From NCBI GenBank assembly GCA_000503915.1, contig CP006915.1, positions 570,001 to 602,000 of the forward strand: a stretch of DNA of 32,000 nucleotides. Direction: 5' to 3'. The position numbers and the translations under genes are program-made. The number at the start of each line of letters is the position of its first letter. The stretch's first letter is position 1. Shown here piece by piece: positions 2,884 through 29,075 of this stretch. This stretch comes from Candidatus Saccharimonadota bacterium (lineage in GTDB: Bacteria; Patescibacteriota; Saccharimonadia; Saccharimonadales; Saccharimonadaceae). The notes under the pieces were generated by a model, which was not told the origin of the DNA, made no database searches, and worked only from the letters and a program-made list of their open reading frames with translations.

Positions 2884-3612
2884 ATGACGATCGGCGGTAG
2901 GCTTAAATTCGTGATCGGGATTGTGATAGTATTCGCGCTTGCTGCTGGCGGGTTCCTTTACCTAAACTATTCGATGTCGAATATCACCTCACGAGCGGCA
3001 ACGCTTGAAGCGGACTCGTACGCCATTAGCGTCGAATATGGCGGCATTATCGAAAAGCAGTACGTCGATATTGGCACTGAGGTGAAAAAGAATGATCCGC
3101 TGTTTGAAATCAACAGTTCAAGTTTGAAAGATGCGCTCGACAGCAAACGGGCAACCAAATCCGGCCTGCTATTTTCATTGACGCCGGACGGCAATATCCT
3201 GCTCCGTTCCAATAATAACGGCGTGATCCGCCAAGTGAATTACCCTGAGGGCGCCTATCTACCATCGAATACGCAAATTGCCCAGCTGGCTGTAAAAGAC
3301 TCCGACTACGTGACAGCAAAGTTTCTGCTCAGGGCGCCGGACTATTCACGGATCGACAAGAAAAAACCACTCCACGTTACCTTGCCGGATAATACACAGC
3401 TGGAAGCGAAAATCTTTGATATTACTTTGCAGCAGGAAGGTGAAAACGTCTATACGATCGTGAAGGCGCGTTTTAGTCGCGGCGCAACGATCAATTCAAA
3501 CTTTAGTCCGGGTACGCCAGTATCGGCAAACTGGCAATTGCAGAGCAACAGCTGGTACACGAACATGCTCAACCTGTTGAAACAGTTGATTAAACCAACG
3601 ACCGAGTCGTAG
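2884..3612 (+). CDS. HlyD/membrane-fusion-protein-like adaptor, single N-terminal TM
   Basis: 242 aa, starting 2 nt after the GT2 stop. N-terminal TM FVIGIVIVFALAAGGFLYL. Lipoyl-like hairpin GGIIEKQYVDIGTEVKKNDPLFEI. Second half GVIRQVNYPEG..IAQLAV..YVTAKF..PLHVTLPDN..EAKIFDI resembles a HlyD beta-barrel segment. Confidence 0.55.
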   Translation: MTIGGRLKFVIGIVIVFALAAGGFLYLNYSMSNITSRAATLEADSYAISVEYGGIIEKQYVDIGTEVKKNDPLFEINSSSLKDALDSKRATKSGLLFSLTPDGNILLRSNNNGVIRQVNYPEGAYLPSNTQIAQLAVKDSDYVTAKFLLRAPDYSRIDKKKPLHVTLPDNTQLEAKIFDITLQQEGENVYTIVKARFSRGATINSNFSPGTPVSANWQLQSNSWYTNMLNLLKQLIKPTTES

Positions 3613-3621
3613 CGGGCGGCC

Positions 3622-5586
3622 ATGAGAGGGCTGGTTGTCATTAGTACTATCGCAGTTTTAACACTTGTAGGACTTGGCTCTGGTCTACTGTATTTTGGTG
3701 GCAGACAAGACGGTACCCTACCTGAGCCATCGAGTGATTCGAAGCCGGCACCGTCACTGATTGATCGTGTCACACTCGACTCGCTCTCTCCAGTGACGGG
3801 TGAGCAGCTTGACTACAGTCATCTTGCGGCAAATCTCACACCACCGACCAACAAATGGTTTAGTGGCTTTGCATTACAGGCGACGCCTCGTCCGGGTTTT
3901 AGCTATCCAAATAGCTTCAAGCCAACCAATAATGGCTTTGAGATGAGTCTGCCGCAAATTAAGGCAAACCCCGATCTTATTATCGGCCCGCATCGCGCCG
4001 ATATACCAGTGCACATCGTTGGTGCTAGTAGCTATAAAATTACTCGTTATGATGAGTTAACGGTCGACCTGACCTACTACAAAGGCAAAACGGCGCTTGC
4101 AACCGTCACGGTAGCGCAAGGTTCACCATATGTTTTTATGACGGCAAAGCAACGCGTGGTAATTCGAGCTGCTGGATTCTCTAAACAAAAGTCGGCAATA
4201 AAGAGAGGTCACTTCTGGTATGGCCTACAAGCGGCCGGTTCGTGGCAAGCTGACGGTCTTCGCCTATCACCCAAACAGACCATGTCTCTATATAGCGCGT
4301 CTCAATCGGGCGATCTCTCGCTATTGAAGCGGTATGCGTCGAACGTGGTAACATCGGCCAAAGCAAGCTACGCGCTTACATCAAGGCAGGTTCGTACTTC
4401 ATTCACATTTACGACACGTAACCATCGGCCGACGGTATTTGCTTACCTACCCCATCAGCAACATGGCAAAAAGCTGGGAAGTGTCAGCTATCGCTCGATT
4501 CTCGGTACACTGCGTACAGCCGTCGGGACGACGTTTACGTATGATGTTGAGCCTATACCGGTTGCCTCATCTTTGACGATCCATTCCCTTTCCGTTATTG
4601 ATCAGGCTGTGCTGCGGGAGCAGCTGCGTCGCGACACGGCTGCGAGTCAGCTGGATAAACAAGATAGCTATTTTGCTGGTAAGCAACTCTACCGTGCGGC
4701 GCAGCTGTTAGATCTTGCTTATCAACTGGGCGACAGCGACACGGCCAAGCAGCTTCAGGCACATCTGAAGACCCGGCTAACGGGCTGGCTGACCAAGGGA
4801 AAGAGTACGCCGCAGTCGTTTGGCTACAACAGAAAAGCCCATGGTATTGTCGGTCGCGCTGCAAGCTTCGGCTCTAGCACGGAGTTCAATGACCATCACT
4901 TCCATTATGGGTATTTCATCTATGCGGCTTCGGTGCTGGCACGCTATGACGAAGACTTCCTACTAGCGTATAAGCCGATGGTTAACTTACTGGTTGCCGA
5001 TATCGCCAACTATAAAAATAATGAGCCACTACCGCTGCGCCGCGTCTTTGACCCGTATGTCGGACATTCCTGGGCGGGCGGAACGGCGCCGTACTCTGAT
5101 GGAAATGATCAGGAGTCGGTTTCGGAAGCTATGAATGCCTGGACGGCGGTTGTCCTGTGGGGACACGCGACGAAAAATACGGCACTGGAAAACGAAGGCC
5201 GCTGGCTACTCGCCAACGAAGCCGCGACCGCCCAGTGGTATTGGTATAAAAGTAACGCATCAAAGGAGGAGTATTTAAAGCAATATACCGCTCCGCTCGT
5301 CTCGCTGGTCTGGGGCGGAAAACGTGAGTACCGTACCTTTTTTAGCGAAGCACCGAATGCCAAATTGGCCATTCAGCTACTGCCAATGAATCCGACGATG
5401 CAGTTCTTGCAAGCCGACAGGAAGAATCTAATCTTTAAGACTACTGATATTCGCCGTCCGTATGGTGATTTCATCTTGATGGCACAACGCGGCGCTACGA
5501 TCGATCAAGCACGCTCCTTGCCCGACACAGCTATCGATGACGGCAATTCGCGCACTTACCTGTATGCGTGGGTACTGACGCACTAA
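3622..5586 (+). CDS. glycoside hydrolase family 81 endo-beta-1,3-glucanase, membrane-anchored
   Basis: 654 aa, starting 9 nt after the previous stop. N-terminal TM anchor. GH81 signature blocks FNDHHFHYGYFIYAASVLA, FDPYVGHSWAGG and GNDQESVSEAMNAW (paired catalytic Glu context). Confidence 0.85.
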   Translation: MRGLVVISTIAVLTLVGLGSGLLYFGGRQDGTLPEPSSDSKPAPSLIDRVTLDSLSPVTGEQLDYSHLAANLTPPTNKWFSGFALQATPRPGFSYPNSFKPTNNGFEMSLPQIKANPDLIIGPHRADIPVHIVGASSYKITRYDELTVDLTYYKGKTALATVTVAQGSPYVFMTAKQRVVIRAAGFSKQKSAIKRGHFWYGLQAAGSWQADGLRLSPKQTMSLYSASQSGDLSLLKRYASNVVTSAKASYALTSRQVRTSFTFTTRNHRPTVFAYLPHQQHGKKLGSVSYRSILGTLRTAVGTTFTYDVEPIPVASSLTIHSLSVIDQAVLREQLRRDTAASQLDKQDSYFAGKQLYRAAQLLDLAYQLGDSDTAKQLQAHLKTRLTGWLTKGKSTPQSFGYNRKAHGIVGRAASFGSSTEFNDHHFHYGYFIYAASVLARYDEDFLLAYKPMVNLLVADIANYKNNEPLPLRRVFDPYVGHSWAGGTAPYSDGNDQESVSEAMNAWTAVVLWGHATKNTALENEGRWLLANEAATAQWYWYKSNASKEEYLKQYTAPLVSLVWGGKREYRTFFSEAPNAKLAIQLLPMNPTMQFLQADRKNLIFKTTDIRRPYGDFILMAQRGATIDQARSLPDTAIDDGNSRTYLYAWVLTH

Positions 5587-8157: not shown

Positions 8158-8985
8158 CTAGCTCACTGGTGGTTGCATGTTGGGGCGCGGCGTTTCTTCG
8201 AATGTGATAGCTGAGGTATCCGTAGGTGAGATGGGCGGAACACTCGGCGGTGCCGGTACGGGAGGCGTTGGAATGGCTACGGGTGGATGCGGCGCACTAA
8301 GCTCCCTATTCATGCGATCGATCATTGGTTCGCCTTCCTCGGGACGCTCAAGCGGCTGAATGATACGGTCGCCGAGCCCGGCTGGCCGTGGCGTTGAAAA
8401 TGGTGCGGTTGGCTGCGGAAGACCAGAAGCAGGCTGTGGTGCCGGTGTGGCTGTTGCTGGGGATATTACTGGGGCTGGTGCGGCCGTCGTCGGGGTTGGT
8501 GCGACAGGAGCTGTTGCGGGACGAGGTGGCACTGCAGAGACGCTGCTAGGCATAGTGGGACGAGGAACCGGAGTTGAAGCAGGCATACCTGGTATAGCTG
8601 CCCCAGGACTCGTCGGCACATCACCGAGGATATCGTGGACGGTACGCACTACATCCTCAATGCCAACCTGTGACTTTACCAGATAACGGTCGGCACCGAG
8701 CTGCTCGCCACGTTGGCGCTGATCTTCTGAGCTAAGGGCGGTCATCATGATGACTTTGATGTTTTTGGTCTCGGTCGTCGAACGCAGGATATCGAGCATA
8801 TCGAAACCGCTGATTTTCGGCATCATTACGTCACTGATAATAAGTTGTGGACGATCCTTAATAGCCATCGCCAGCGCCTCTTCACCGTCACCGGCCGAGA
8901 CAATATCGTAGCCTTCTGCCAGTAGCCGCACCCCGTATATTTCGCGAAGACTCTTGTCGTCCTCTACCAGTAGTATCTTTGCCAT
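8158..8985 (-). CDS. response regulator: receiver domain plus a ~155-aa Pro/Thr/Ala-rich tail, no recognisable output domain
   Basis: 275 aa. The receiver (KILLVEDD..., IISDVMMPKISG, MMTAL, KS) ends near residue 120. The rest is low complexity (PVPRPTMP.., APAPVISPATATPAPQP.., PPVPAPPSVPP). Confidence 0.85.
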   Translation of the reverse strand: MAKILLVEDDKSLREIYGVRLLAEGYDIVSAGDGEEALAMAIKDRPQLIISDVMMPKISGFDMLDILRSTTETKNIKVIMMTALSSEDQRQRGEQLGADRYLVKSQVGIEDVVRTVHDILGDVPTSPGAAIPGMPASTPVPRPTMPSSVSAVPPRPATAPVAPTPTTAAPAPVISPATATPAPQPASGLPQPTAPFSTPRPAGLGDRIIQPLERPEEGEPMIDRMNRELSAPHPPVAIPTPPVPAPPSVPPISPTDTSAITFEETPRPNMQPPVS

Positions 8986-9030: not shown

Positions 9031-10953
9031 TTATGGTTGATTTGAGGTGTCGGGGTCACGAACCGGTACTCTAATCGTCCGCGGCCGGCTGGTGTAAGCG
9101 CTCGGATTCTGCTCGATAGTAGAAATGGGGATATTGTTATTCGGCTGCGGCACTGCGGCAACAATTGAAGTTTCGTAAGATGGCTGCGCTGTCTCGGTTT
9201 GAGCTTGAGGCGATTGCTCAAGGGATATAGCGGAAACAGCATGGATCGGCTCGTCGGCGACGGTGGCTGCAGCGGTAGCAGCCTCGATAAGCCGGTTCGC
9301 TTCCTCCTGGTCGATACGCGGCAGTGCGAGTATGAAGGTGCTTCCCTTTTTGTATTCGCTTTGTACGGTGATACGGCCGCCCATAAGCTCGGCCAGACGA
9401 CGTGACAGGTAAAGACCAAGACCAGTGCCACCAATTTCACGGGTGTCGGTATTGTCAACACGGTAGAATTTCTGGAATAAGTGCGGGATGTCCTCAGCGG
9501 GAATACCAATGCCGCTATCTTGGATGCTGACATTGACATGTGTTTCGTCGCCGCCGACATCAATAATAACATCACCCTTTAGCGTGTACTTGATGGCATT
9601 TTCAATTAAGTTCGAGACTACCTCGCGCAGATGGTCATTATCAACATGCGTGTAGTAAACCGGTATAACAACACGATCACCGCTCGCGCCAGTGTCGGTA
9701 CGCGGCTTAAAGATGAAACGCAGACCCTTTTCTTGCGCTTTGACACGTAGTCCTTCGGCCACATCAGCCACAAATTCAACCACATCCACGACAGACGGAT
9801 TATTGGTAATACGTCCGTCATCGGCTCTGGAGACGTCGAGGAGATCCTGGAATAGTCGGCCAAGATGCTGGGCTGAAGCCTGGGCTTTGGTGACGTATTC
9901 ACGGGCTTTGTCGTCGATCTGTGCGGTTGCAGGATTTAATACCAGGCCGAGGTAGCCCTCGATACTAGCCACCGGCGTGCGCATCTCGTGGCTGGCAGTC
10001 GAGATAAATTCAGCCTGCTCTCGCTCTTCGGCTTTCTCTTTCGTCATATCGCGAAAGACGATGATAGCGCCAGTACTGGGGCGGCCAATCGGGGAGACGA
10101 TAATAGAAAGCAGGACTTTCTTGCCACCCTCGGTGTGGATCGAAAAATCCTCACTGTGGACTTCCTGATTGTTCATGAGGACTTGTTCGATTGGATCGTT
10201 CTGCTGGCTGACTGGCTTGTCGGCGCGGTCGTGAAGTTTAATGACCGACTTGTAGCTGAGGTTGACGGCATCTTCCCTACCCCAACCGATCATGTGCTGG
10301 GCGGCTGGGTTGATCAGCTCTATAACGCCTCGTTTATCAACCGCGATAACACCGTCGTTGATGGCATTGATCACGACGTCCGCTTTGCTCGATTCTTGGT
10401 TGAGCTCATTCGCGAGCTGGTTGTAGGCCTTGTCACGGGTGTTTTCTCTGGGTGATTTGGTATGCCAGATGATAAAACTACCAATCAGTGGTGCGAGGCC
10501 AGCCAATGCGGCGAGGACAAAAGCCACCATGGGCGCATGAGAAAGCCCGGCGTACACCATATAGGCGATTGCACCGAAACCGAGGAGTAGATATCCGACG
10601 CCGCCGAATACACCGGCAAAGACCGCCACCGCGATCCACAGCGCAATAAACGGTGAGTTGATCTCACCGGTGTTCATCACTAGGTTGGCGGTCGTGATAA
10701 CCAGCAACGTATAGACAAGAAATGCGAATGGGTTGATGTACTTTTGTGGTGCCCATAAATACGCGATGAAGCTCGCGAGGAAGGTTCCGCCGGAAAGCAG
10801 TAGGCTGGTCCAGCCGATAATGACGAGACCATTTTCAGTGGCGTGTCCGAAGAAGTACGGTAAAAAGTAGAGTATAACCACCACAAGCGAAACAAACATC
10901 GTGCCTTCACAGATACGACGGTACCAAAATCGAGTGAGTGTCAGTGCGTGCAC
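9031..10953 (-). CDS. sensor histidine kinase (multi-TM N-terminus, PAS-like, HisKA, HATPase_c) with a ~90-aa disordered C-terminal tail
   Basis: 640 aa. H-box FISTASHEMRTPVASIEGY. N box NLIENAIKYT. G boxes DSGIGI and GTGLGLY. The N-terminal ~170 aa are hydrophobic. The start could be the internal M19. Confidence 0.85.
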   Translation of the reverse strand: MHALTLTRFWYRRICEGTMFVSLVVVILYFLPYFFGHATENGLVIIGWTSLLLSGGTFLASFIAYLWAPQKYINPFAFLVYTLLVITTANLVMNTGEINSPFIALWIAVAVFAGVFGGVGYLLLGFGAIAYMVYAGLSHAPMVAFVLAALAGLAPLIGSFIIWHTKSPRENTRDKAYNQLANELNQESSKADVVINAINDGVIAVDKRGVIELINPAAQHMIGWGREDAVNLSYKSVIKLHDRADKPVSQQNDPIEQVLMNNQEVHSEDFSIHTEGGKKVLLSIIVSPIGRPSTGAIIVFRDMTKEKAEEREQAEFISTASHEMRTPVASIEGYLGLVLNPATAQIDDKAREYVTKAQASAQHLGRLFQDLLDVSRADDGRITNNPSVVDVVEFVADVAEGLRVKAQEKGLRFIFKPRTDTGASGDRVVIPVYYTHVDNDHLREVVSNLIENAIKYTLKGDVIIDVGGDETHVNVSIQDSGIGIPAEDIPHLFQKFYRVDNTDTREIGGTGLGLYLSRRLAELMGGRITVQSEYKKGSTFILALPRIDQEEANRLIEAATAAATVADEPIHAVSAISLEQSPQAQTETAQPSYETSIVAAVPQPNNNIPISTIEQNPSAYTSRPRTIRVPVRDPDTSNQP

Positions 10954-12876: not shown

Positions 12877-13686
12877 CTACCTTAGATCTTCTTCATCTTC
12901 ACTATCATCGTCAGTTTTGCTGCCAGACCCACTGCCGCTTTTACTTTGGCTGTCATCGTCTGTACTCTTGGGTGCTTCGGCAGAACTGCTATCGTCAGTT
13001 TTCCCACTTCCAGATGAAGTGCTGCTATCATCATCTTTTGACTGGTCAGAGGTAGAGTTCCGGTCGTCACTCGATTTGCTTTCACTGGATTTCTTCGAAC
13101 TTGAGGGGGTTTTGGCACGGACGACTGCGCCCGTCTCGGCGTTGATATCGACACGCGCTTCATCGGTAAATCGTATACTATAAAGCACGATGCCGTCGTC
13201 AGACTCAATCTCTATTTTATTAATAATCTTACCAGGCATTGTCGATTTTGCGACTTCGACGGCTTTTGCGAGACCAATGCCGCCCTTGAAGGTGGCGGGT
13301 ATCGATTCGAGTGCGCGGTCTGACTTGTCTTCACTTTCCGTCGCAATCTTTTCGCCAGAGGTAGCGTCAAAGGTAATAACGGTGCCGTCAGACAATGTTG
13401 CGCTGTAGACGAGCTTTCCATCCTGGGTTTTTAGCTCAATCCCTGTTACGGTAGCAGCATCTTTTCCGTCGAGGGCGCTTTCTTTGATGGTCGCGAGATC
13501 AACCAGCCCTGCCAGATTTGTCGTGTCAAGCTCGATTGCCTTGCTGGTCTGAGCTAAATCGTTTTTCTGAGAGTCCGACTGCATTGAGGAGAAGAATTTC
13601 CAGCCGAGCAGGCCGATGATGATGACTACTATTACGCCAATAACGATTTCGATGGCCGAGAAGCCGGATTGTCTGTTTGTTTTCAT
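12877..13686 (-). CDS. pilin-like (class III signal) protein with two PepSY-like domains and an acidic Ser/Asp-rich tail
   Basis: 269 aa. N-terminus MKTNRQSG|FSAIEIVIGVIVVIIIGLL fits the prepilin G/F(T,S)xxE motif followed by a hydrophobic helix. Two PepSY-like units: ..VTGIELKTQDGKLVYSATLSDGTVITFDATSGEKI and ..AKAVEVAKSTMPGKIINKIEIESDDGIVLYSIRFTDEARVDINAETGAVV. The tail of ~78 aa is Ser/Asp/Lys/Gly-rich. SD AGGAGTGA lies upstream. Confidence 0.8.
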   Translation of the reverse strand: MKTNRQSGFSAIEIVIGVIVVIIIGLLGWKFFSSMQSDSQKNDLAQTSKAIELDTTNLAGLVDLATIKESALDGKDAATVTGIELKTQDGKLVYSATLSDGTVITFDATSGEKIATESEDKSDRALESIPATFKGGIGLAKAVEVAKSTMPGKIINKIEIESDDGIVLYSIRFTDEARVDINAETGAVVRAKTPSSSKKSSESKSSDDRNSTSDQSKDDDSSTSSGSGKTDDSSSAEAPKSTDDDSQSKSGSGSGSKTDDDSEDEEDLR

Positions 13687-17437: not shown

Positions 17438-18883
17438 TTACCTAAGGGCGTTTGAAATACGTTTTAGCGTGGTATCTTTACCAAGGAGTGCTAAGGTATC
17501 GTTTAGCTGCGGGCTAAAGGGTGCCCATGTCGTAACAATGCGGATTAGGCTGAAAAGGATACCGGGTTTTTGACCGGTCGTCTCAAGTAGTGAGTTCAGT
17601 GTATTTTGAATCGCTTCACTGCTCCATTCGATCGCCTCAAATGCCTCAAGCGTCGTTTTCAGTAGCGATTGGATCTCTTCGTCAGAGAGCTTCTTTAGCT
17701 GCTTGTTTTCTTCAACGAGACTCCAGTCGGGTGTTGGCTCGCTGAAGAAATATGAGGTCAGTTGAGGTAAGTCCGCTAGGGTCTTGAGTCGCTCAGCAGC
17801 AAGCTCGAGGACGCTTTCTCGGTACTGCTCGTTCGATTCATTTGCGGCATCCGGCCAAAAATTTTCGACGCGGCGTGATAGCTCACCGGGCGAGAGACCA
17901 CGGATGAATTGACCATTCATCCAGAGGAGTCGTTTTTCATCAAAGCGCGCACCCGATCGCTGTACGCGGTTTAAGCTAAATTTTTGAATAAGTTCGTCCT
18001 TTGTGAAAACTTCTTGCTCGGTGCCGTCATTCCAGCCGAGTGTAGCGATAAAACTAACGAGCGTTTCGGGTAAGTAGCCATCACGAATATAGTCGAGCAC
18101 GTCCTTAGCGCCATCACGTTTACCAAGTTTCTTGCCACCGCTCTCGGCCAAAATGTGTGGCATTGTGGCAAGAATAGGCCGTGGAATATCGAGGGCTTCG
18201 TAAAGGTTCAAATAATTTGGTTGGCTTGAAATAAACTCCTGACCGCGAATAACGTGGGTGATCTTCATTTCAAAGTCATCAATAATATGAGCAAAATTGT
18301 AGGTAGGATAGCCGTCGCTTTTTATGAGAATAAAGTCGTCAATAACTTCCGGTCCGGTGGAAAGATCTCCCATAACCTCGTCATGCCACTGGTAGGCTTT
18401 CGGATCCGATTTGAAGCGCAGGGGGTGCTTGCCAAACCAGTCGGCGGGTACTTCTGATGCGCCCTGTTCCCCCTCGAAGATATCGGGGCGATGATTGCGA
18501 TAGAGGAACGGCTTTTTGTTTGTCTGGGCTTGTTCGCGGAAAGCTTGTACCTCTGCCGGAGTATACGGATCGACGTAGGCTCTACCCTGCTCGATCAGTT
18601 TTTTAGCCCATGCTTTGTAGCTGTCCAGGCGCTCACTCTGCTTGTATGGAGCATATAACCCGCCAATATCCGGGCCTTCATCGTAATTCAGCCCGAGTGC
18701 CGTAAGGCAGTCAATAATATGCTGTGCGGAGCCTTCAACTTCCCTGTTCTTATCGGTATCCTCGAGTCGTAGAATAAACTGGCCGCCGGATTGTCGGGCA
18801 ACTAGATATGCAAACAAGGCAGTGCGGATACCGCCAACATGTAAAAAGCCGGTGGGGCTGGGGGCGAAGCGAGTACGAACCAT
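17438..18883 (-). CDS. gltX: glutamyl-tRNA synthetase
   Basis: 481 aa. N-terminus VRTRFAPSPTGFLHVGGIRTALF (HIGH-type motif), KMSKS-type KLGKRDG, and a class I GluRS layout. Confidence 0.92.
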   Translation of the reverse strand: MVRTRFAPSPTGFLHVGGIRTALFAYLVARQSGGQFILRLEDTDKNREVEGSAQHIIDCLTALGLNYDEGPDIGGLYAPYKQSERLDSYKAWAKKLIEQGRAYVDPYTPAEVQAFREQAQTNKKPFLYRNHRPDIFEGEQGASEVPADWFGKHPLRFKSDPKAYQWHDEVMGDLSTGPEVIDDFILIKSDGYPTYNFAHIIDDFEMKITHVIRGQEFISSQPNYLNLYEALDIPRPILATMPHILAESGGKKLGKRDGAKDVLDYIRDGYLPETLVSFIATLGWNDGTEQEVFTKDELIQKFSLNRVQRSGARFDEKRLLWMNGQFIRGLSPGELSRRVENFWPDAANESNEQYRESVLELAAERLKTLADLPQLTSYFFSEPTPDWSLVEENKQLKKLSDEEIQSLLKTTLEAFEAIEWSSEAIQNTLNSLLETTGQKPGILFSLIRIVTTWAPFSPQLNDTLALLGKDTTLKRISNALR

Positions 18884-18926: not shown

Positions 18927-19778
18927 TCACCCATTGTAGGCGGTCGCAGATGACCCTTGCTCGAGCATAACTGCGTCAACGCGAAAGATTCCACTGGAGC
19001 TTGCCGAGCCAGTCCGCCATATTTGTATTGAACCAGCAGGTGTAGCTGAGCTTGTCCATGTGAGGCTTTTTCGTACCGTCTGGCCAGGTGTAAGGTTGGG
19101 GCTAAACGTTTGCATCGCACGAGTACCGGCGGCGCCATCACCTTCACGTAGACCTATGGCGGTAAGGTCACCACTTATCCCTGTAATGTATACCGAAAGC
19201 GTGTAGGTCGTGGAGGCCGTCAAGCTTGAGAGCGTATATTGAACCCCAGACTGATTCGAGGTGGTCACGCCGACCTCTAAGCAGAAGTCACCAGCGACTA
19301 TGCCGCTGCCACTGTTCACTGTTGCGAGACTGGCTCCAGCTATCGTAGACCAGCCGGTTGCATTGGTTTCAAAACTTGAATTCGTCACTAAGTTGGTGGC
19401 GAGCGTCCCTCCACTGCTACTGTGTCCAATACACGCTCCTTCCGTAGGCGAAGAAGTATTTGTTATGCTGTAGGTGGCCGTACCGGCTATTGCAGTGAGG
19501 CAGTAGCTTGTCCCCGAGGTACTGGTGTATTGATAGGAGACAGCACCGTCAGTAATACCAGCTGTACTGAGGTTGCCCGTTGTCGGGTAGCTAGAATTGT
19601 CTACTTTATACAGCTCAAGCTTCTTCTTTGCTTGCGAGAGTGCTGCACTGGCTTCAGAGGCTCTGGCTCGTTACTGGATGCCGTTATAGGCGACAATAGT
19701 AATCGCCGCTAACACGGCGATGACGATGATGACAATGAGGAGTTCGATGAGGGTGAAGGCGCTAGTAGGCCTTTTCAT
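18927..19778 (-). pseudogene. type IV pilin-like protein fused to a CBM/lectin-like beta-sandwich, interrupted by one in-frame TAA (codon 36, 19671-19673)
   Basis: The ATG at 19778 encodes MKRPTSAFTLIELLIVIIVIAVLAAITIVAYNGIQ, then TAA. The same frame continues with no further stop: RARASEASAALSQAKKKLELYKVDNSSYPTTG...NLVTNSSFETNATGW...FRVDAVMLEQG, ending at 18927. I translated this codon by codon. The ORF track shows only the distal 153 aa, starting from a GTG. Confidence 0.7.
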
Positions 19779-19780
19779 AG

Positions 19781-20260
19781 CTAGAAACCGGTTCCGCCCG
19801 ATGACCATACGCCCCAGCGGTCGGTGTAAGTGTTATCTTTCATGTCACTGGGAATATTGGAAAACTCACCACTAGGCACAGATGGCTGATAGAGCCGATC
19901 GAGTTTATAGTTTGTGCCGTCGGATTTGTATATGTAGGTATTGTTTATAAGATTATTAGTCGGGTCATCGGTGATACTTGGCAGCGACGATGCGTATTCA
20001 GGTGTGAGACCGGGAATGAAGGCGTCGCCATCCCGACGCTGATATTTCCAGGCACCACCAGTCGAAGGATAGCTGCCTTTCTCAGAGGCGTAACGTTCAA
20101 CCAGGTTTTGGATGCTTGTTATATCGTTTATTTTTGCAGTAGTACGGGCTTTATTATTGACACTGTTGTACGACACAATTGTGATGCTGGCAAGAATAAC
20201 GATCACTACAATCACGATGAGCAGTTCAACGATAGTGAAGCCGCTTATGGTTTTTCTCAT
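19781..20260 (-). CDS. type IV pilin-like protein
   Basis: The start at 20260 gives MRKTISG|FTIVELLIVIVVIVILASITIVSYN, a prepilin motif plus hydrophobic helix. 159 aa. Its stop lies 2 nt upstream of the next pilin ATG. Confidence 0.8.
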   Translation of the reverse strand: MRKTISGFTIVELLIVIVVIVILASITIVSYNSVNNKARTTAKINDITSIQNLVERYASEKGSYPSTGGAWKYQRRDGDAFIPGLTPEYASSLPSITDDPTNNLINNTYIYKSDGTNYKLDRLYQPSVPSGEFSNIPSDMKDNTYTDRWGVWSSGGTGF

Positions 20261-21353: not shown

Positions 21354-22811
21354 ATGAAAGAGACTATGCACCAAACCCGCTCTCGGCGACGCCAGATTAT
21401 CCAGCGTACTATCGTCTACACGTTAATGACAACCTTTGTCGTCGGTCTCGTAACGGTACTCGTACTACTAATGCTTGGCTACCGTTTCAACCGGCTGACG
21501 AACACGATCGAGCAAGGCGGCCTCGTCCAATTTGTTACCCGCCCCAGTGGCGCTTCGGTAACGGTCGGCAACGCGCATCTGATCGATACGACACCCTCGA
21601 AGATTACGGTCAACGCTGGTCACTACCAGGTGAAGATGGAAAAAAGTGGCTATCGCCTCTGGCAGAAGTCGGTCGACATCGAAGCGGGCGAGGTGCTATG
21701 GCTAAACTACGCACAACTGGTGCCGGAAAAGATTACCACCACAACGGTAGCTTCCTTCGCGTCGCTTTATGAAGCGCGCGTCTCGCCGACCGGACGCTAC
21801 TACGCGTTATTACCTGATGTCACAAAGCCGAGTATTGTTCTGATAGACATGGCCGATAGCAAATACCAGCAAACCAACGTCAACCTAAGTACGGTAGCGG
21901 GAAAGACGTCGGGCACCTGGCGCTATACGATTGCGAGCTGGAGCAACGACAGTAATTTTATATTGGTAAAACGTACGCAAGCATCACGGATCGAATGGCT
22001 ACTGGTCGATCGGCACGACCCGGCCAAATCGCAGAATTTAACCAGTACTTACAAAAAAGCGATATCGACTGTCCTGTTTGATCCGAATTCGAGCAATCGT
22101 CTCATCTTGCGGATGAATGACGGAACGTTGCAGACAGCCGATGTTTCCTCTGGCAATCTGTCGGACGTGCTACTACGCGATATTACTGGTATCAATGTCA
22201 GCGACGATACACTGTTGTATGTGCAGCAGAAATCGCCAGCCATCCAGTCGGTCGGGTATATGTCTCTCGGCGGCGTGAAAGGCCGTGAACTAGTGCAGCG
22301 GGAAACCAAGCAAAAACTACTGATAGACATTGGATCGTACTACGGTGATCTGTATACGGTTATTACGACTGGCAATGAGATAGATTTATACCGGCTCTCT
22401 GCCCTTCCGAAGAGTGCCTCAACCGCACCGATTACCATGACACCAGTTGCGCACTTCCAGGTGGCGACGCCGCCACTTGATGCATCGATCAGATCGGCGG
22501 GTCGTTTGGCCGTTGTAGAGTCTCAACGTGGCTTTCTGACATATGATCTGGAGCTTGGTAAGATGACTTCCACCGACCTCGGTACAACCACGGCCAGTCG
22601 GCTTACATGGCTCGATAAGTACCATGTTGGCTACGTCGTCAACGGACGCTTTACGATCATCGAATTTGACGGTGGGAACCGCCAGGAAATCACCGAAGCG
22701 ACCACCGGTTTTGAAGGTAACCAATCGAGCGATAATAAATACGTCTATAGTTTTCTGCGTACCGATCGCGGCGTTGAGCTACGGCGTAGCCAAATGATAC
22801 TCTCGAACTAG
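21354..22811 (+). CDS. PEGA-domain membrane-anchored protein with beta-rich C-terminal region
   Basis: 485 aa. N-terminal TM. PEGA-like unit VTRPSGASVTVGNAHLIDTTPSKITVNAGHYQVKMEKSGYRLWQKSVDIEAGE. A TATAAT at 21350-21355 overlaps the first ATG, so the ATG at 21366 (M5) may be the real start. Confidence 0.7.
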   Translation: MKETMHQTRSRRRQIIQRTIVYTLMTTFVVGLVTVLVLLMLGYRFNRLTNTIEQGGLVQFVTRPSGASVTVGNAHLIDTTPSKITVNAGHYQVKMEKSGYRLWQKSVDIEAGEVLWLNYAQLVPEKITTTTVASFASLYEARVSPTGRYYALLPDVTKPSIVLIDMADSKYQQTNVNLSTVAGKTSGTWRYTIASWSNDSNFILVKRTQASRIEWLLVDRHDPAKSQNLTSTYKKAISTVLFDPNSSNRLILRMNDGTLQTADVSSGNLSDVLLRDITGINVSDDTLLYVQQKSPAIQSVGYMSLGGVKGRELVQRETKQKLLIDIGSYYGDLYTVITTGNEIDLYRLSALPKSASTAPITMTPVAHFQVATPPLDASIRSAGRLAVVESQRGFLTYDLELGKMTSTDLGTTTASRLTWLDKYHVGYVVNGRFTIIEFDGGNRQEITEATTGFEGNQSSDNKYVYSFLRTDRGVELRRSQMILSN

Positions 22812-23995
22812 CGGGCACCAAATAGCCGCTCGATAAGCGTCGGTGCAGTACCTGGCATTGTGATTGCCTCTCCACCAGTATCCGTTTGCGGTGCTTTTGC
22901 GGCGGTTGCTGGGTTGGGGCTTATCTGTTCGCCAGTAACAAGTAGGCGGTTCAGCGCCGTACCGAGTGGCGTACAGGTTAGAAGCGTCACTTCGGGTTTG
23001 GTTGTACCATCCTGCAATGACTTGACGTCATTTGGCTTGACGACACGGATTTTCGTAACGTTATACGTGTAACGTGTGCCATTATAGTGGACGTAGAATA
23101 TGTCGCCTTTCTTTAGTCGGTCAAGTAAAGCGAACACGAATTTGTATTTACCACCGTCGGTAAAGTCATTGCTTGAGTGCCCGGAGAGCACCGTATTGCC
23201 GATTTGGCCAGGCTTGCTGTTGGCGCCTGGTATACCAAACCAGGCTAGGCCCCTTTCCATCGCCTTTAGTTGCGAGGTCTGGTCTGGCGTGACGTTATAG
23301 ATAACCGGGACATTAACATTAATCTTCGGGATGATCAGTACCGGATCCTTACTGACGGCGAGCGAGGCATTCGGATCGACAACGATATTTTGAGGATCAA
23401 TCTCACCCGGAGTTACGTAGGCTTTAACATTGCCGATGATAATACTGTTGTATTGTAAAAAGACGAAAAGCAGTAAGACGCCGATGGCTGATACGAGCGG
23501 TACAAAGTGGCGGCTTTTACGTACTTTCTTGGCGGATGACTGTACTTTGTCGACCAGCTGCGCGCGTAGGTCGTACATGGCTTCGTCCTTAGAGAGTGGT
23601 TCGTTGCTGGTAGCGGTACCAATGGCCTGCGTAGGGTGTCCTTGGTCTAGTTGCGACGGCAACCGACTGGTATACGCTTGGTGTACCTGACGGACGGCAC
23701 CCATGTAGTAATGTTCGTAGTACTTCTGATAATAATTTTGCCAGGCACTATGATAACGGTTCCATTCCTCGGAACGAATTGTATGTGATGGCGTATGGTT
23801 GCGCTGGTATGGGGTCGGCTCGACGGCGGTCACGTCTGTCCTTCCCTCATCGGCGGCTTGTTTTGAGTAGATAGCATCGATCTGGTGACGCGTTACATCG
23901 GCTGCGGCCGCCTGTGAGGCTGCGATAGAACGCTCAGGCGGTTGGGTACCACCTTGAGGCGGTTTTTGGATCGGCATGTTGTCATCAGGTTGCAT
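22808..23995 (-). CDS. sortase-family transpeptidase with ~190-aa N-terminal extension and one TM
   Basis: Catalytic motifs LSGHS, TLLTCTP (TLxTC) and a downstream NRLLV Arg. TM FVPLVSAIGVLLLFVFL. The ORF track extends to 24187, but that part is antisense to tRNA-Leu. M65 (ATG at 23995) is taken as the start. Confidence 0.85.
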   Translation of the reverse strand: MQPDDNMPIQKPPQGGTQPPERSIAASQAAAADVTRHQIDAIYSKQAADEGRTDVTAVEPTPYQRNHTPSHTIRSEEWNRYHSAWQNYYQKYYEHYYMGAVRQVHQAYTSRLPSQLDQGHPTQAIGTATSNEPLSKDEAMYDLRAQLVDKVQSSAKKVRKSRHFVPLVSAIGVLLLFVFLQYNSIIIGNVKAYVTPGEIDPQNIVVDPNASLAVSKDPVLIIPKINVNVPVIYNVTPDQTSQLKAMERGLAWFGIPGANSKPGQIGNTVLSGHSSNDFTDGGKYKFVFALLDRLKKGDIFYVHYNGTRYTYNVTKIRVVKPNDVKSLQDGTTKPEVTLLTCTPLGTALNRLLVTGEQISPNPATAAKAPQTDTGGEAITMPGTAPTLIERLFGAR

Positions 23996-24134
23996 AGCTA
24001 TAGATTCCCACTTGCTCTTATTGTACAATACTAGAGAGATTTCGGGTATGCCGCGCCATGTGGAATCGCCTGCCCGAATGAATTCATTCAGGCGGGGTAG
24101 ACAATTCACTTCGTGAATTAAAATCTGTATTTGT

Positions 24135-24221
24135 GCCGCGATGGCGGAATTGGTAGACGCGCGGGACTCAAAATCCCGTTCCAGCAATGGAGTGTGAGTT
24201 CGATTCTCACTCGCGGCACCA
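24135..24221 (+). tRNA. tRNA-Leu (anticodon CAA), class II long variable arm, CCA encoded
   Basis: The hand-folded 87-nt structure is GCCGCGA TG GCG GAATTGGTAGA CGC G CGGGA CTCAAAA TCCCG T-TCCA-GCAA-TGGA-GT GTGAG TTCGATT CTCAC TCGCGGC A CCA. Confidence 0.9.
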
Positions 24222-26095: not shown

Positions 26096-26780
26096 CGCGA
26101 CCCTTCTGCATGGTGTAAGCAATGTTTTTACGCTCTATCACCACTTCCCAGTTATGTTGTTTGGCTGCCTCTAGTAGCTCTTCGGAGGGGTTAAATGCAA
26201 TGCCACGCTCGACGAGCTCGAGCATCTCTATGTCGCTCTTACTATCGCCAACCGCTATGCTTCCCTTGAGGTCAACATCATGTGCCACGAAATAATCTTT
26301 CAAAATAGCTGCTTTATTCCCGACCGTAGCTCGTGCCACTTTTCCAGTAAACGCGTGGTCTTTACGTTCGTATAGCCAGCCGATGCACTCGTCAAATCCG
26401 TATGATTTGGCAAACGGTTCGGCAATCTCTTGCATCGATCCGCTGAGCGCCAGGAGATAGTAACCTTCGGCCTTTAATGATGTGGCTAAATCTGTCGTGT
26501 AGGCATAGACTTTGTGCCCTGATTCTTCAAGAATCTGGCTGGTGAGTAGTTCAAAATCTTCCACCTTCAGTCGTGTTAAACTTTCGTCTAACGCTTTAAT
26601 CGCTGCAATCTCAAACGTATGAAAAGCCTCCTTGCGTGACTGCCAGGCATGAAAGCTGGCGCGAATGGCGTTTGCCTGGTGATCCTCAAAAAATCCCCGT
26701 TCGAGTAGCTTTAGGACGACTTCATAGTATAGCTGCCAGCGGAAGACGGTTCCATCGATGTCGAAGACGGCGAATTTCAT
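26058..26780 (-). CDS. HAD-superfamily hydrolase (HAD-IB / phosphoserine-phosphatase-like)
   Basis: 240 aa. Motif I FDIDGTV, a cap-like helical insert, and motif IV GDSKSDIEM. There is an ATGA overlap with the upstream gene. Confidence 0.8.
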   Translation of the reverse strand: MKFAVFDIDGTVFRWQLYYEVVLKLLERGFFEDHQANAIRASFHAWQSRKEAFHTFEIAAIKALDESLTRLKVEDFELLTSQILEESGHKVYAYTTDLATSLKAEGYYLLALSGSMQEIAEPFAKSYGFDECIGWLYERKDHAFTGKVARATVGNKAAILKDYFVAHDVDLKGSIAVGDSKSDIEMLELVERGIAFNPSEELLEAAKQHNWEVVIERKNIAYTMQKGRDGLYVLAQTDTF

Positions 26781-27631
26781 GCGCTAAATGAATAGTCGGC
26801 GGCGGCGAAGAGTAGCACGGCCATTAAGATGAGCAGCCCGATAAAGACCGCCAGGACGATGGGTAGCAGTAGCGTCAGCCATGATAGCCAGTGGGCAGCC
26901 GGTTTCTCTTTGGTGGCACTGTATTGACGATAGAGTACGGCGTTGGTGCCGGGGCGTAGGACTGCATCCATCGCACCAAAGGTCATCATATTCCATAGTC
27001 CGCTGGCGGCAAATGTTGTCAGCCATGCACCTTTCGTAAGTTCTAGGCTGTGCTTGACGGCCGCGTTGCCGCGCAGGTCTTTAGCGAAGAAACTGGTACC
27101 AGCCAAACTGTAACGGACTGACATGATGATACCAGGCACGATCAACAGAAGCGACCAGAGGATTACTTTGACAATAATGATAATCTGTAGCCATAAATAG
27201 CTGCCGATATGTCGGAAGACTTCTTTTAAGGCTTCACCAAGATTGGTGTCGTGTCCGGCAGCCAAGCGTGCCGACGTGTAGTCACTGACACCACTAATGA
27301 CTATCCCTATGAGAATGGCAATGGACAGTATCGTGGCCGCAATAACCCCGATAATTGCCCAGACGGCTGGTGGCAATGCACGAAATGTGCTCTCGAGGTC
27401 ACCCTTAATTGCTTCACTCTCCTGACGTGAGATTTGCCGATCAGGACGCGCATCGTTTGGTGTGATGGCATTTTGGATGGTGCTAACTCCGTTGCCAAGG
27501 AATGCCAGTGCCGATAGTACAATGGCAGCGATTGCCACCGATTGCGCTTTCTTAAAGAAGGTCGTCAAGCCCTCGAGCGCGATATAAAACGGGTTACTTT
27601 GATAGGTTTTTGACGTATGTTGTGCCACCAT
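26777..27631 (-). CDS. multi-pass membrane protein, hypothetical
   Basis: The ATG at 27631 is preceded by AAGGAGG. 284 aa with at least 5 hydrophobic segments. The longer track ORF (to 27904) overlaps the upstream kinase gene and was rejected. Confidence 0.7.
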   Translation of the reverse strand: MVAQHTSKTYQSNPFYIALEGLTTFFKKAQSVAIAAIVLSALAFLGNGVSTIQNAITPNDARPDRQISRQESEAIKGDLESTFRALPPAVWAIIGVIAATILSIAILIGIVISGVSDYTSARLAAGHDTNLGEALKEVFRHIGSYLWLQIIIIVKVILWSLLLIVPGIIMSVRYSLAGTSFFAKDLRGNAAVKHSLELTKGAWLTTFAASGLWNMMTFGAMDAVLRPGTNAVLYRQYSATKEKPAAHWLSWLTLLLPIVLAVFIGLLILMAVLLFAAADYSFSA

Positions 27632-27645
27632 TGCCTCCTTGTTAA

Positions 27646-28281
27646 CTACTTGTATAATAGCAAACTCTCGATTGTTTTGAGAAGTTTTGTTGCTTCTTGT
27701 GGTGCAGCGGTCTGACTCATTCTGTTCGTAGCGATAGCAATCACCTGTCGCGCGGTTTCGGAGAGCTGCCCTGGGCGGTTGACGAGCCAGTGATGATCGA
27801 TGGTTTGGGCAAGCGACCATTCGATCGAATCTTTTCCTTCTTGAAGACGTTTTCGTAAGTCGTCGTTCATTTCGGGAAAGCGTGCCTGGAGCCATTCCTG
27901 CCACGATTCAACCGATGCCATTAGGCTGATTGTCATCGTCCGAGCAAAGGGTAAAGCGCGATACATCTGAACAGTACTCGCTAATGTATCCTGAAGATTG
28001 AATGTGGTTTGAAAACTTTGAATGACCGTGCCGTACTTAAAGTGTGTCGTGGGGTGTTCGATCCAGGTTAGTGCTTCGCCTCGATCCTTCAGTGTTTGCG
28101 CTTCAACCTCTGATAGATGAATATAGCTACTATTTTCGCCATTTCGCTGCGGACGCGTTGTAAACGCTCGGACGTAACTAAAACGCGGATCAAGCCGGAC
28201 GACTTCGCGCATTAGCGTGGACTTGCCGATAGCAGTCGGTCCAACGATCATGACGAGAGTTTTGTTTGCTAATTCATTCAT
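27646..28281 (-). CDS. guanylate-kinase-like P-loop kinase
   Basis: P-loop GPTAIGKSTL and the TTRPQRNGE motif typical of Gmk, followed by WIEH....YGT. The start at 28281 forms an ATGA overlap with the xth stop. Confidence 0.6.
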   Translation of the reverse strand: MNELANKTLVMIVGPTAIGKSTLMREVVRLDPRFSYVRAFTTRPQRNGENSSYIHLSEVEAQTLKDRGEALTWIEHPTTHFKYGTVIQSFQTTFNLQDTLASTVQMYRALPFARTMTISLMASVESWQEWLQARFPEMNDDLRKRLQEGKDSIEWSLAQTIDHHWLVNRPGQLSETARQVIAIATNRMSQTAAPQEATKLLKTIESLLLYK

Positions 28282-29075
28282 ACGATTTCGATACTGACCG
28301 GACAATGGTCGGAGCCCATGACGTCGGGGTGAATTTGCGGGTTTTTAACACGCGCCGCAATTTCCTGACTAGCGAGCCAGTAGTCAATGCGCCAGCCGAC
28401 GTTACGTGCCCTGGCATTGGCCCAATGCGTCCACCAACTGTAGGCTTCGGTTTTGTCTGGGTACACCGCGCGGAAGGTATCGACGAAACCAGCGTCGAGA
28501 AAGTCTTGGAAACGCTCGCGCTCTTCATCAGTAAAGCCGTGCTTGCCGATATTTTGCTTGGGATTTGCGAGGTCGATTTCCTGGTGGGCAACGTTGAGGT
28601 CACCGCAAAATAGTACGGGTTTGGTCTTCTCAAGCTGTTTGACGTACGCCAGGAATGCTTTATCCCAACTGTCGTAGCGCAGCTTCAATCGGCTCAGATC
28701 GCCTTTTGAATTTGGTGTGTAGACGGTCACCATCCAAAAATCATCGAACTCGGCGGCGGTTACCCTGCCCTCGTCGTTGGGGTTGCCGTAGATGTCGCCG
28801 GTGACGTCGAATTTCTTAATAATGTCAGCTGGAAAGCCATCTTTGTAGCCAAGCGGTTTGGTCTTGGAAAAAATTGCCGTACCGGCGTAGCCTTTTTTGA
28901 CAGCACTAAAAAAGTGCTCCTCGTACTGCGGAAAATCGATCTCAAACTGATCACGCGAAGCTTTCGTCTCTTGTAGGCAGAGGAAATCTGGGTCATGTTC
29001 GGCGATGAACTTTTGCAGTGCCCCTTTATTGAGGACGGCGCGGATACCGTTAACGTTCCAGGAATAGAGCTTCAT
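28278..29075 (-). CDS. xth: exodeoxyribonuclease III (AP endonuclease, EEP fold)
   Basis: 265 aa. MKLYSWNVNGIRA, FLCLQETK, GDLNVAH, WRIDY and SDHCPV are the canonical Xth/ExoIII blocks. Confidence 0.9.
   Translation of the reverse strand: MKLYSWNVNGIRAVLNKGALQKFIAEHDPDFLCLQETKASRDQFEIDFPQYEEHFFSAVKKGYAGTAIFSKTKPLGYKDGFPADIIKKFDVTGDIYGNPNDEGRVTAAEFDDFWMVTVYTPNSKGDLSRLKLRYDSWDKAFLAYVKQLEKTKPVLFCGDLNVAHQEIDLANPKQNIGKHGFTDEERERFQDFLDAGFVDTFRAVYPDKTEAYSWWTHWANARARNVGWRIDYWLASQEIAARVKNPQIHPDVMGSDHCPVSIEIV

Follow-up and report, generated by a model that had tools for sequence, protein, structure and literature searches.

The window, by which we mean the whole 32,000-nt stretch of DNA analysed here, carries on its minus strand two adjacent pilin genes followed by gltX (Table 1). 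The upstream pilin gene is intact, while the second is interrupted by a stop codon. The reading frame of this second gene runs from an ATG at 19778 to a TGA at 18927-18929 and comprises 283 sense positions with a single internal stop, the TAA that stands as codon 36. The codons around the TAA read GGC ATC CAG TAA CGA GCC, within the wider sequence GGCATCCAGTAACGAGCC. Past this point the frame stays open for 247 codons with neither a second stop nor a frameshift, a run whose chance we estimate at about (61/64)^247, or roughly 7e-6, and the same codons align end to end with intact homologues. The continuity of the frame is therefore not that of a chance open reading frame. The earliest in-frame start codon after the TAA is a GTG at 19388, 94 codons further on, where a carbohydrate-binding module (CBM) begins. 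An earlier note on this DNA had described a single-stop frame between 19778 and 18927 with the TAA at codon 36, and translation confirmed this description together with every peptide string quoted in it.

In GenBank, the locus is represented by two hypothetical proteins of 45 and 153 aa, and the gene caller applied to the corresponding Logan contig reported neither of them. A single open frame should run from the leader through the helix and the globular domain, but the TAA at codon 36 breaks it. We therefore assign the gene to its family as a pseudogene and not as a functional member.

Table 1. Features of the interrupted pilin-CBM gene and its immediate neighbours (window coordinates)
Feature	Position	Strand	Evidence or remark
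Intact pilin of 159 aa ('fimbrial protein pilin'), upstream	19781..20260	-	TAG 2 nt before the start of the interrupted gene
Whole interrupted gene: pilin and CBM_4_9 modules, one internal TAA	18927..19778	-	Translation, Pfam, full-length intact homologues
Prepilin leader MKRPTSA, Ala at -1 before the predicted cleavage site	19758..19778	-	Sequence, alignment A1
Mature hydrophobic helix alpha1-N (FTLIELLIVIIVIAVLAAITIVAYNGIQ; Phe+1, Glu+5)	19674..19757	-	PF07963, TIGR02532
Premature in-frame TAA, codon 36	19671..19673	-	Sequence and homologue column; seen in three assemblies
Pilin remainder after the stop, aa 37-118: alpha1-C, small beta-sheet, Cys93/Cys116	19425..19670	-	AlphaFold2 model, alignment, profile matches
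Gly/Ser-rich linker HSSSGGTLAT between the modules	19395..19424	-	Sole low-confidence block of the model, pLDDT 67
C-terminal CBM_4_9-type beta-sandwich, aa 129-283	18930..19394	-	PF02018, profile matches, Foldseek
45-aa fragment AHB42502.1 / HCZ28626.1, from an upstream ATG to the premature TAA	19671..19808	-	GenBank
153-aa fragment HCZ28627.1, GTG start, CBM only, no signal peptide	18927..19388	-	GenBank
gltX (glutamate-tRNA ligase), downstream	17438..18883	-	43 nt after the interrupted gene; synteny anchor

Pilin and carbohydrate-binding modules

Domain scans were run on the product with Gln put in place of the stop. Residues 5-27 matched the Pfam model N_methyl (PF07963) with 26.6 bits (GA 21.2), and the NCBIfam model for the prepilin cleavage/methylation domain, TIGR02532, scored 22.5 against a cutoff of 16.3. 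Matches to the ComP_DUS and T2SSG pilin domains lay below the Pfam threshold. The leader MKRPTSA is short and polar, and the helix that follows it, FTLIELLIVIIVIAVLAAITIV, has Phe at +1, Glu at +5 and a run of about 20 hydrophobic residues, which is the form of a class III signal peptide. Alanine at position -1 also occurs in five of the 27 homologues that make up, with the window gene, our 28-sequence alignment (A1). The N-terminal part of the family profile matches PilA (6xxd; E 7e-16) as well as geopilin chains.

The part of the protein encoded after the stop was modeled using AlphaFold2. The model covers residues 37-283 (model residue n corresponds to residue n+36 of the full-length protein), was computed from an input alignment of 53 sequences, and has a mean pLDDT of 91.1. 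Its pilin part consists of a 24-residue helix (model residues 2-25) and a three-stranded sheet (strands 45-51, 55-62 and 65-70 in model numbering), all with pLDDT of 85-97, and thus has the ‘lollipop’ shape of an alpha1 helix joined to a small beta-sheet globular domain. The C-terminal part is predicted to form a beta-sandwich of ten strands. The identification of the N-terminal module as a type IV pilin, first proposed in the earlier note, is upheld by the N_methyl and TIGR02532 scores. No pil machinery genes were found within the window; full type IV pilus gene sets have been reported elsewhere in the genome of Candidatus Saccharibacteria bacterium RAAC3_TM7_1, from which the window derives (Kantor et al., PMC3812714).

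For the C-terminal module, the Pfam model CBM_4_9 (PF02018) matched residues 129-247 with 35.2 bits (GA 25.9), and the C-terminal part of the family profile matches CBM22 and CBM16 chains. The NCBIfam model for a phage/GTA head spike fibre domain also gave a near-cutoff match over this module. A Foldseek search of the predicted structure against the PDB returned 4xup, a CBM22, as the best match (E 3.7e-8). The CBM22 and CBM16 structures 4xup, 2zex and 2zey were found with E values of 4e-8 to 1e-7 and TM-target of 0.72-0.77, and inclusion of 2y6j (CBM4-2) extends these ranges to E 1e-6 and to TM-target 0.64-0.77. The predicted sandwich resembles the CBM4/16/22 modules of glycoside hydrolases, and its superposition gives TM-target values of 0.70-0.77 for 4xup, 2zex and 1h6x, yet the sequence identity of these structures to the window module is just 14-20%, and they are attached to an enzyme whereas the module studied here is attached to a pilin.

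The Pfam and NCBIfam matches together with the predicted fold support the reading of the protein as a pilin plus a CBM-like beta-sandwich. Because the profile and AlphaFold checks that had been proposed for the C-terminal domain recover such a fold, the lectin reading that the earlier note attached to it is not refuted. By analogy with published modular pilins, the domain would bind a ligand, probably a glycan, and the predicted fold suggests a possible role in host recognition.

Homologues and syntenic orthologues

A protein cluster search identified 572 homologues. The best 120 are nearly all 286-393 aa long, with three shorter. Among the best of the homologues listed, most are intact with lengths of 290-320 aa, and many have both N_methyl and CBM_4_9 domains; their names describe prepilin-type N-terminal cleavage/methylation or carbohydrate binding domain-containing proteins. 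Many of these relatives from metagenome-assembled genomes (MAGs) of Patescibacteria share the two domains of the window gene, and all are uninterrupted, in contrast to it. Several of the homologues are found as sets of paralogues on a single contig. A contig search with the family alignment was dominated by generic pilin N-termini and did not recover the genome of the window itself; the record titles of the related loci that it found are mainly those of Saccharibacteria or Saccharimonadales MAGs.

In alignment A1, the two residues that flank the stop, Q35 and R37, are invariant, as are Cys93 and Cys116. The column of the stop itself holds Gln in 18 of the 27 homologues and N, V, D, S or E in the rest. 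The NxSFE motif at the N-terminal end of the CBM and a C-terminal Asp are conserved family-wide. Every residue that is invariant in the family is kept in the window gene. The two modules differ in their degree of conservation, with a mean pairwise identity of 62% for the pilin module and 32% for the CBM module. The window sequence is 56-60% identical to each of the subgroups, which are 48-56% identical among themselves, and it does not sit on a long branch. In most family members, though not in the subfamily of the window gene, the CBM module is extended by a conserved C-terminal tail, YADGxSxNWxWNGTxNNSTSTGP. The window gene terminates in TAYNG like its nearest relatives P0001, P0002 and P0009. 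Since the tail is missing from these three as well, its absence is a trait of the subfamily and not a truncation.

One of these relatives, P0001, is a syntenic orthologue. It lies on a JGI contig (locus L086), is 61% identical to the window protein and intact, has CAA at the column of the stop, and is followed after a short spacer by a GltX 63% identical to that of the window. At a second syntenic locus, L094, the order CBM, gltX, DUF3048 is kept. The gene at this locus, P0128, was among the four matches obtained with the CBM module alone as query, a search whose yield was limited by its word filter and which is therefore uninformative on paralogues within RAAC3_TM7_1. P0128 looked like a second ‘split’ gene, a reading that we rejected, since this orthologue is truncated where its contig has a chimeric end. 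The end of its contig (GCA_020049755.1, JAHZTO010093762.1; positions 1-115 of the locus) has a GC content of 78% in its first 100 nt compared with 50% elsewhere, and that it joins in the middle of the pilin-CBM gene suggests a chimeric assembly end, which makes the orthologue look CBM-only. The locus of P0008 is not syntenic with the window.

Origin and state of the stop codon

With Gln in most homologues at this column and CAA in the syntenic orthologue, a change from CAA to TAA is the simplest history of codon 36. The substitution suggested in the earlier note is thus backed by both the homologue column (18 of 27) and the comparison with P0001. We consider the gene to be, with good probability, a recent nonsense pseudogene of a modular type IV pilin in RAAC3_TM7_1. 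In intact members of the family, the prepilin leader and hydrophobic helix would place the subunit in a type IV filament. They are followed by a small globular pilin domain with the conserved cysteine pair, a short linker, and a CBM4/16/22-like sandwich that would be displayed on the pilus and whose ligand, judged by analogy, is probably a glycan. In the window copy, a single C-to-T change would have turned the CAA of Gln-36 into TAA. Translation would then end after a 35-residue stub of leader plus helix, so that the pilin globular domain and the CBM would not be produced in exportable form, and re-initiation at the GTG would yield a CBM without an export signal. The window copy is therefore most likely non-functional.

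If the 45-aa peptide and the 153-aa CBM protein translated from the GTG were products of two genes, this would agree with the GenBank annotation and with the position of that GTG at the start of the CBM module. However, the 282 nt between them share their frame, code for the conserved alpha1-C helix and the globular pilin domain, and align with intact homologues. The separate CBM protein would lack any export signal, we know of no functional product that consists of a leader-plus-helix stub of 35-45 aa, and the Logan gene caller recognized neither fragment. We regard this reading as extremely improbable.

Three assemblies contain the TAA, namely the closed RAAC3_TM7_1 genome, a UBA re-assembly and the Logan assembly of SRR944699. 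Contig DPRQ01000015.1 of GCA_003537595.1 and the Logan SRR944699 contig show 0 mismatches to the window in 9,229 nt, and both have the TAA. The 45-aa product that ends at the TAA, AHB42502.1 (RAAC3_TM7C00001G0658), is annotated in the closed genome of 845,464 bp, which Kantor et al. 2013 (PMC3812714) reconstructed from Rifle aquifer-sediment columns, using paired reads for curation. With an identical sequence in three assemblies made by different software, one of them curated and closed, an assembly artefact is unlikely, and the possibility raised in the earlier note that the TAA might be an assembly error is not borne out. The three assemblies most likely share the same reads, given how closely their sequences agree, and all appear to come from one population and not from independent biological samples; the putative link of SRR944699 to the Rifle study is one that we draw through sequence identity alone. 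Agreement of this kind rules out an assembly error, and a minor intact allele may still exist in the population.

It is also conceivable, if quite improbable, that the organism has an intact gene and that the TAA arose as an error of sequencing or of the consensus. The codon is one base away from the family consensus codon, and a systematic error would be carried into all assemblies if, as is probable, the read set is common to them. Nevertheless, an Illumina substitution would have to dominate a deeply sequenced genome curated with paired reads (PMC3812714), three different assemblers concur, and the local sequence is neither a homopolymer nor of low complexity.

A rather unlikely alternative to a fixed lesion is that the TAA is polymorphic, with CAA and TAA alleles that coexist as standing variation, not as a switch, so that the adhesin would be made in some cells. 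The lack of any other decay fits a very young or still-segregating mutation, and pilin repertoires are typically variable, with the CBM as the variable part of this family (32% compared with 62% identity). These points are offset by the fact that TAA is the consensus of three assemblers and of manual curation. No intact allele was found in a collection of 15 billion proteins, and no full-length relatives with more than 61% identity were found in a database of 5.8 billion clusters. Exact look-ups of the full-length variants with Q36, K36 or E36 were negative, and a 32-mer around the stop, in which any nucleotide was allowed as the first base of the codon, was absent from the JGI metagenome contigs. 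Reversible switching between the alleles would in addition be left without a mechanism. The lesion is not associated with a simple repeat, a homopolymer or a plausible invertible element, and the only repeats nearby are a chance-level, imperfect inverted pair of 17 nt and a 9-nt repeat of 2.2 copies within the helix codons, 46 nt from the stop. Therefore, we rejected a slipped-strand or invertible switch.

A further possibility is that programmed read-through or a suppressor tRNA overcomes the stop, and that the full-length pilin-CBM protein is made, perhaps at a low and regulated level. The frame past the stop is indeed perfectly preserved, and the stop is followed by C, which gives the weakest termination context for TAA in Escherichia coli; UAA is, on the other hand, the least leaky stop codon. 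In the window, TAA ends 13 of the 30 confident genes, which makes it the commonest genuine stop, and it never occurs within them. Given this usage, the codon is not recoded, and we rejected TAA recoding as an explanation. None of the 27 homologues has a stop at the column of codon 36. We also pooled 168 distinct pilin-type N-termini from the fetched loci, mostly from Saccharibacteria, and just one of them, the window's own gene, has an early stop with a long open frame behind it. The only tRNA genes in the window are those for tRNA-Glu(CTC) and tRNA-Leu(CAA), with no suppressor tRNA among them. A bypass of the stop is accordingly very improbable. The normal use of TAA, the lack of a shared stop and the lack of repeats leave programmed read-through and phase variation without support.

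The earlier note had offered three states for the gene. Fresh inactivation is the one that we retain, as the probable explanation; an on/off switch is not supported, as the lesion has no repeat, homopolymer or invertible element, and neither is read-through, given TAA as the main genuine stop and homologues that have no stop there. On the assumption that the gene is inactive, we infer from the retained invariant residues, the 247 open codons and the lack of a long branch that the inactivation is recent. The absence of further lesions would also be expected of a gene that retained some form of expression. RAAC3_TM7_1 has about 60 pilus-related genes, or 6% of the genome (Kantor et al., PMC3812714), and an intact pilin gene lies directly upstream; the loss of one copy is thus unsurprising.

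It is unlikely that a CBM-tipped pilin appears on a subset of cells, either through an intact CAA allele that coexists with the TAA in the natural population or through occasional bypass of the stop. If true, this would provide an episymbiont with a simple form of heterogeneity in adhesion or host range, in which the pilin family would combine a constant pilin module with a fast-diverging binding module.

Modular pilins and other genes of the window

Modular type IV pilins, as described in the parts of Raynaud et al. 2021 (PMC8179133) on which we draw, combine an N-terminal prepilin motif with an extra domain that is not specific to type IV pili, and the window gene has this composition. Among the examples given there are two proteins of Streptococcus sanguinis, PilB (pilin plus vWA) and PilC (pilin plus a concanavalin-A-like lectin), for which the principle of a grafted module that is displayed on the pilus to bind a ligand has been shown, and carbohydrate-binding modules are described as being among the commonest domains grafted on pilins (PMC8179133). 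The carbohydrate-binding modules named in those parts of the paper are PF13385, PF13620 and PA14, whereas the window gene has PF02018 (CBM_4_9). In contrast to S. sanguinis PilB and PilC as presented in the same source, the window copy belongs to a Saccharibacterium and has a nonsense codon, and its adhesive function and location at the pilus tip would follow by analogy.

Within the Saccharibacteria, Nanosynbacter lyticus TM7x has two lectin-like minor pilins, PilX1 and PilX2, for which a function in glycan recognition has been proposed (Grossman et al., bioRxiv 2024, PMC11623550). PilX1 is, by its description, a pilin with a C-terminal beta-jelly-roll like that of the window gene; it is structurally close to CBMs and lectins, and glycans of the host cell wall have been proposed as its ligands (PMC11623550). 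The domain of PilX1 is reported not to be recognized by NCBI CD-Search, and no PilD cleavage site was predicted for PilX1 (PMC11623550). The window protein, by contrast, has a recognizable CBM_4_9 and a canonical leader. The window copy is also interrupted.

The combination of pilin and CBM is accordingly not new. Many database entries have it, and modular pilins of the lectin type have been published (PMC8179133), for Saccharibacteria as well (PMC11623550); the novelty of a glycan-binding pilin was overrated. What is new here is only that a single disrupted pilin-CBM gene accounts for two hypothetical proteins of RAAC3_TM7_1. The annotation can be corrected so that AHB42502.1, and HCZ28626.1/HCZ28627.1 in the UBA re-assembly, belong to a single nonsense-disrupted gene. 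By itself the broken copy matters little, and the family, abundant in Saccharibacteria and other Patescibacteria, is the more useful object. Its conserved pilin module and divergent CBM fit the published idea that lectin-type minor pilins recognize glycans of the host cell wall, and intact members such as P0001 are better candidates for binding studies than the window copy.

Several further genes of the window were also noted. A membrane-anchored protein of 485 aa, which combines a PEGA domain with beta-propeller-like repeats, is encoded at 21354-22811 on the plus strand, divergently from the block formed by a 314-aa protein, the two pilin genes and gltX. Another protein with a pilin-like N-terminus, SGFSAIEIVIGVIVV, is encoded at 12877-13686 on the minus strand (269 aa; N_methyl only at E 0.12). 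It has two PepSY domains and a long acidic tail rich in Ser, Asp and Lys, and may be a pseudopilin-anchored PepSY protein. The plus strand between 1214 and 5586 carries three genes in a row, for a cellulose-synthase-like GT2 (1214-2881), an HlyD-like barrel-sandwich protein (2884-3612) and a protein with the C-terminal domain of GH81 (3622-5586), an endo-beta-1,3-glucanase family. This trio may be a cassette for glucan synthesis and turnover, which would be unusual for so small a genome.

The remaining observations concern regulators and gene starts. A receiver domain encoded at 8158-8985 on the minus strand continues into about 160 aa of low-complexity sequence rich in Pro, Ala and Thr, with no recognizable output domain, and this response regulator is adjoined by a histidine kinase reading frame at 9031-10953. 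For the sortase gene, the longest open reading frame (22808-24187, minus strand, 459 aa, TTG start) overlaps at its 5' end with tRNA-Leu(CAA) at 24135-24221 on the plus strand. The GenBank product has 395 aa, which places the true start further downstream. The longest reading frames at 26777-27904 and 27646-28305 on the minus strand share 259 nt, and no Pfam match at E<=1e-5 was obtained for either; the start of the 375-aa frame in this region is probably overcalled.
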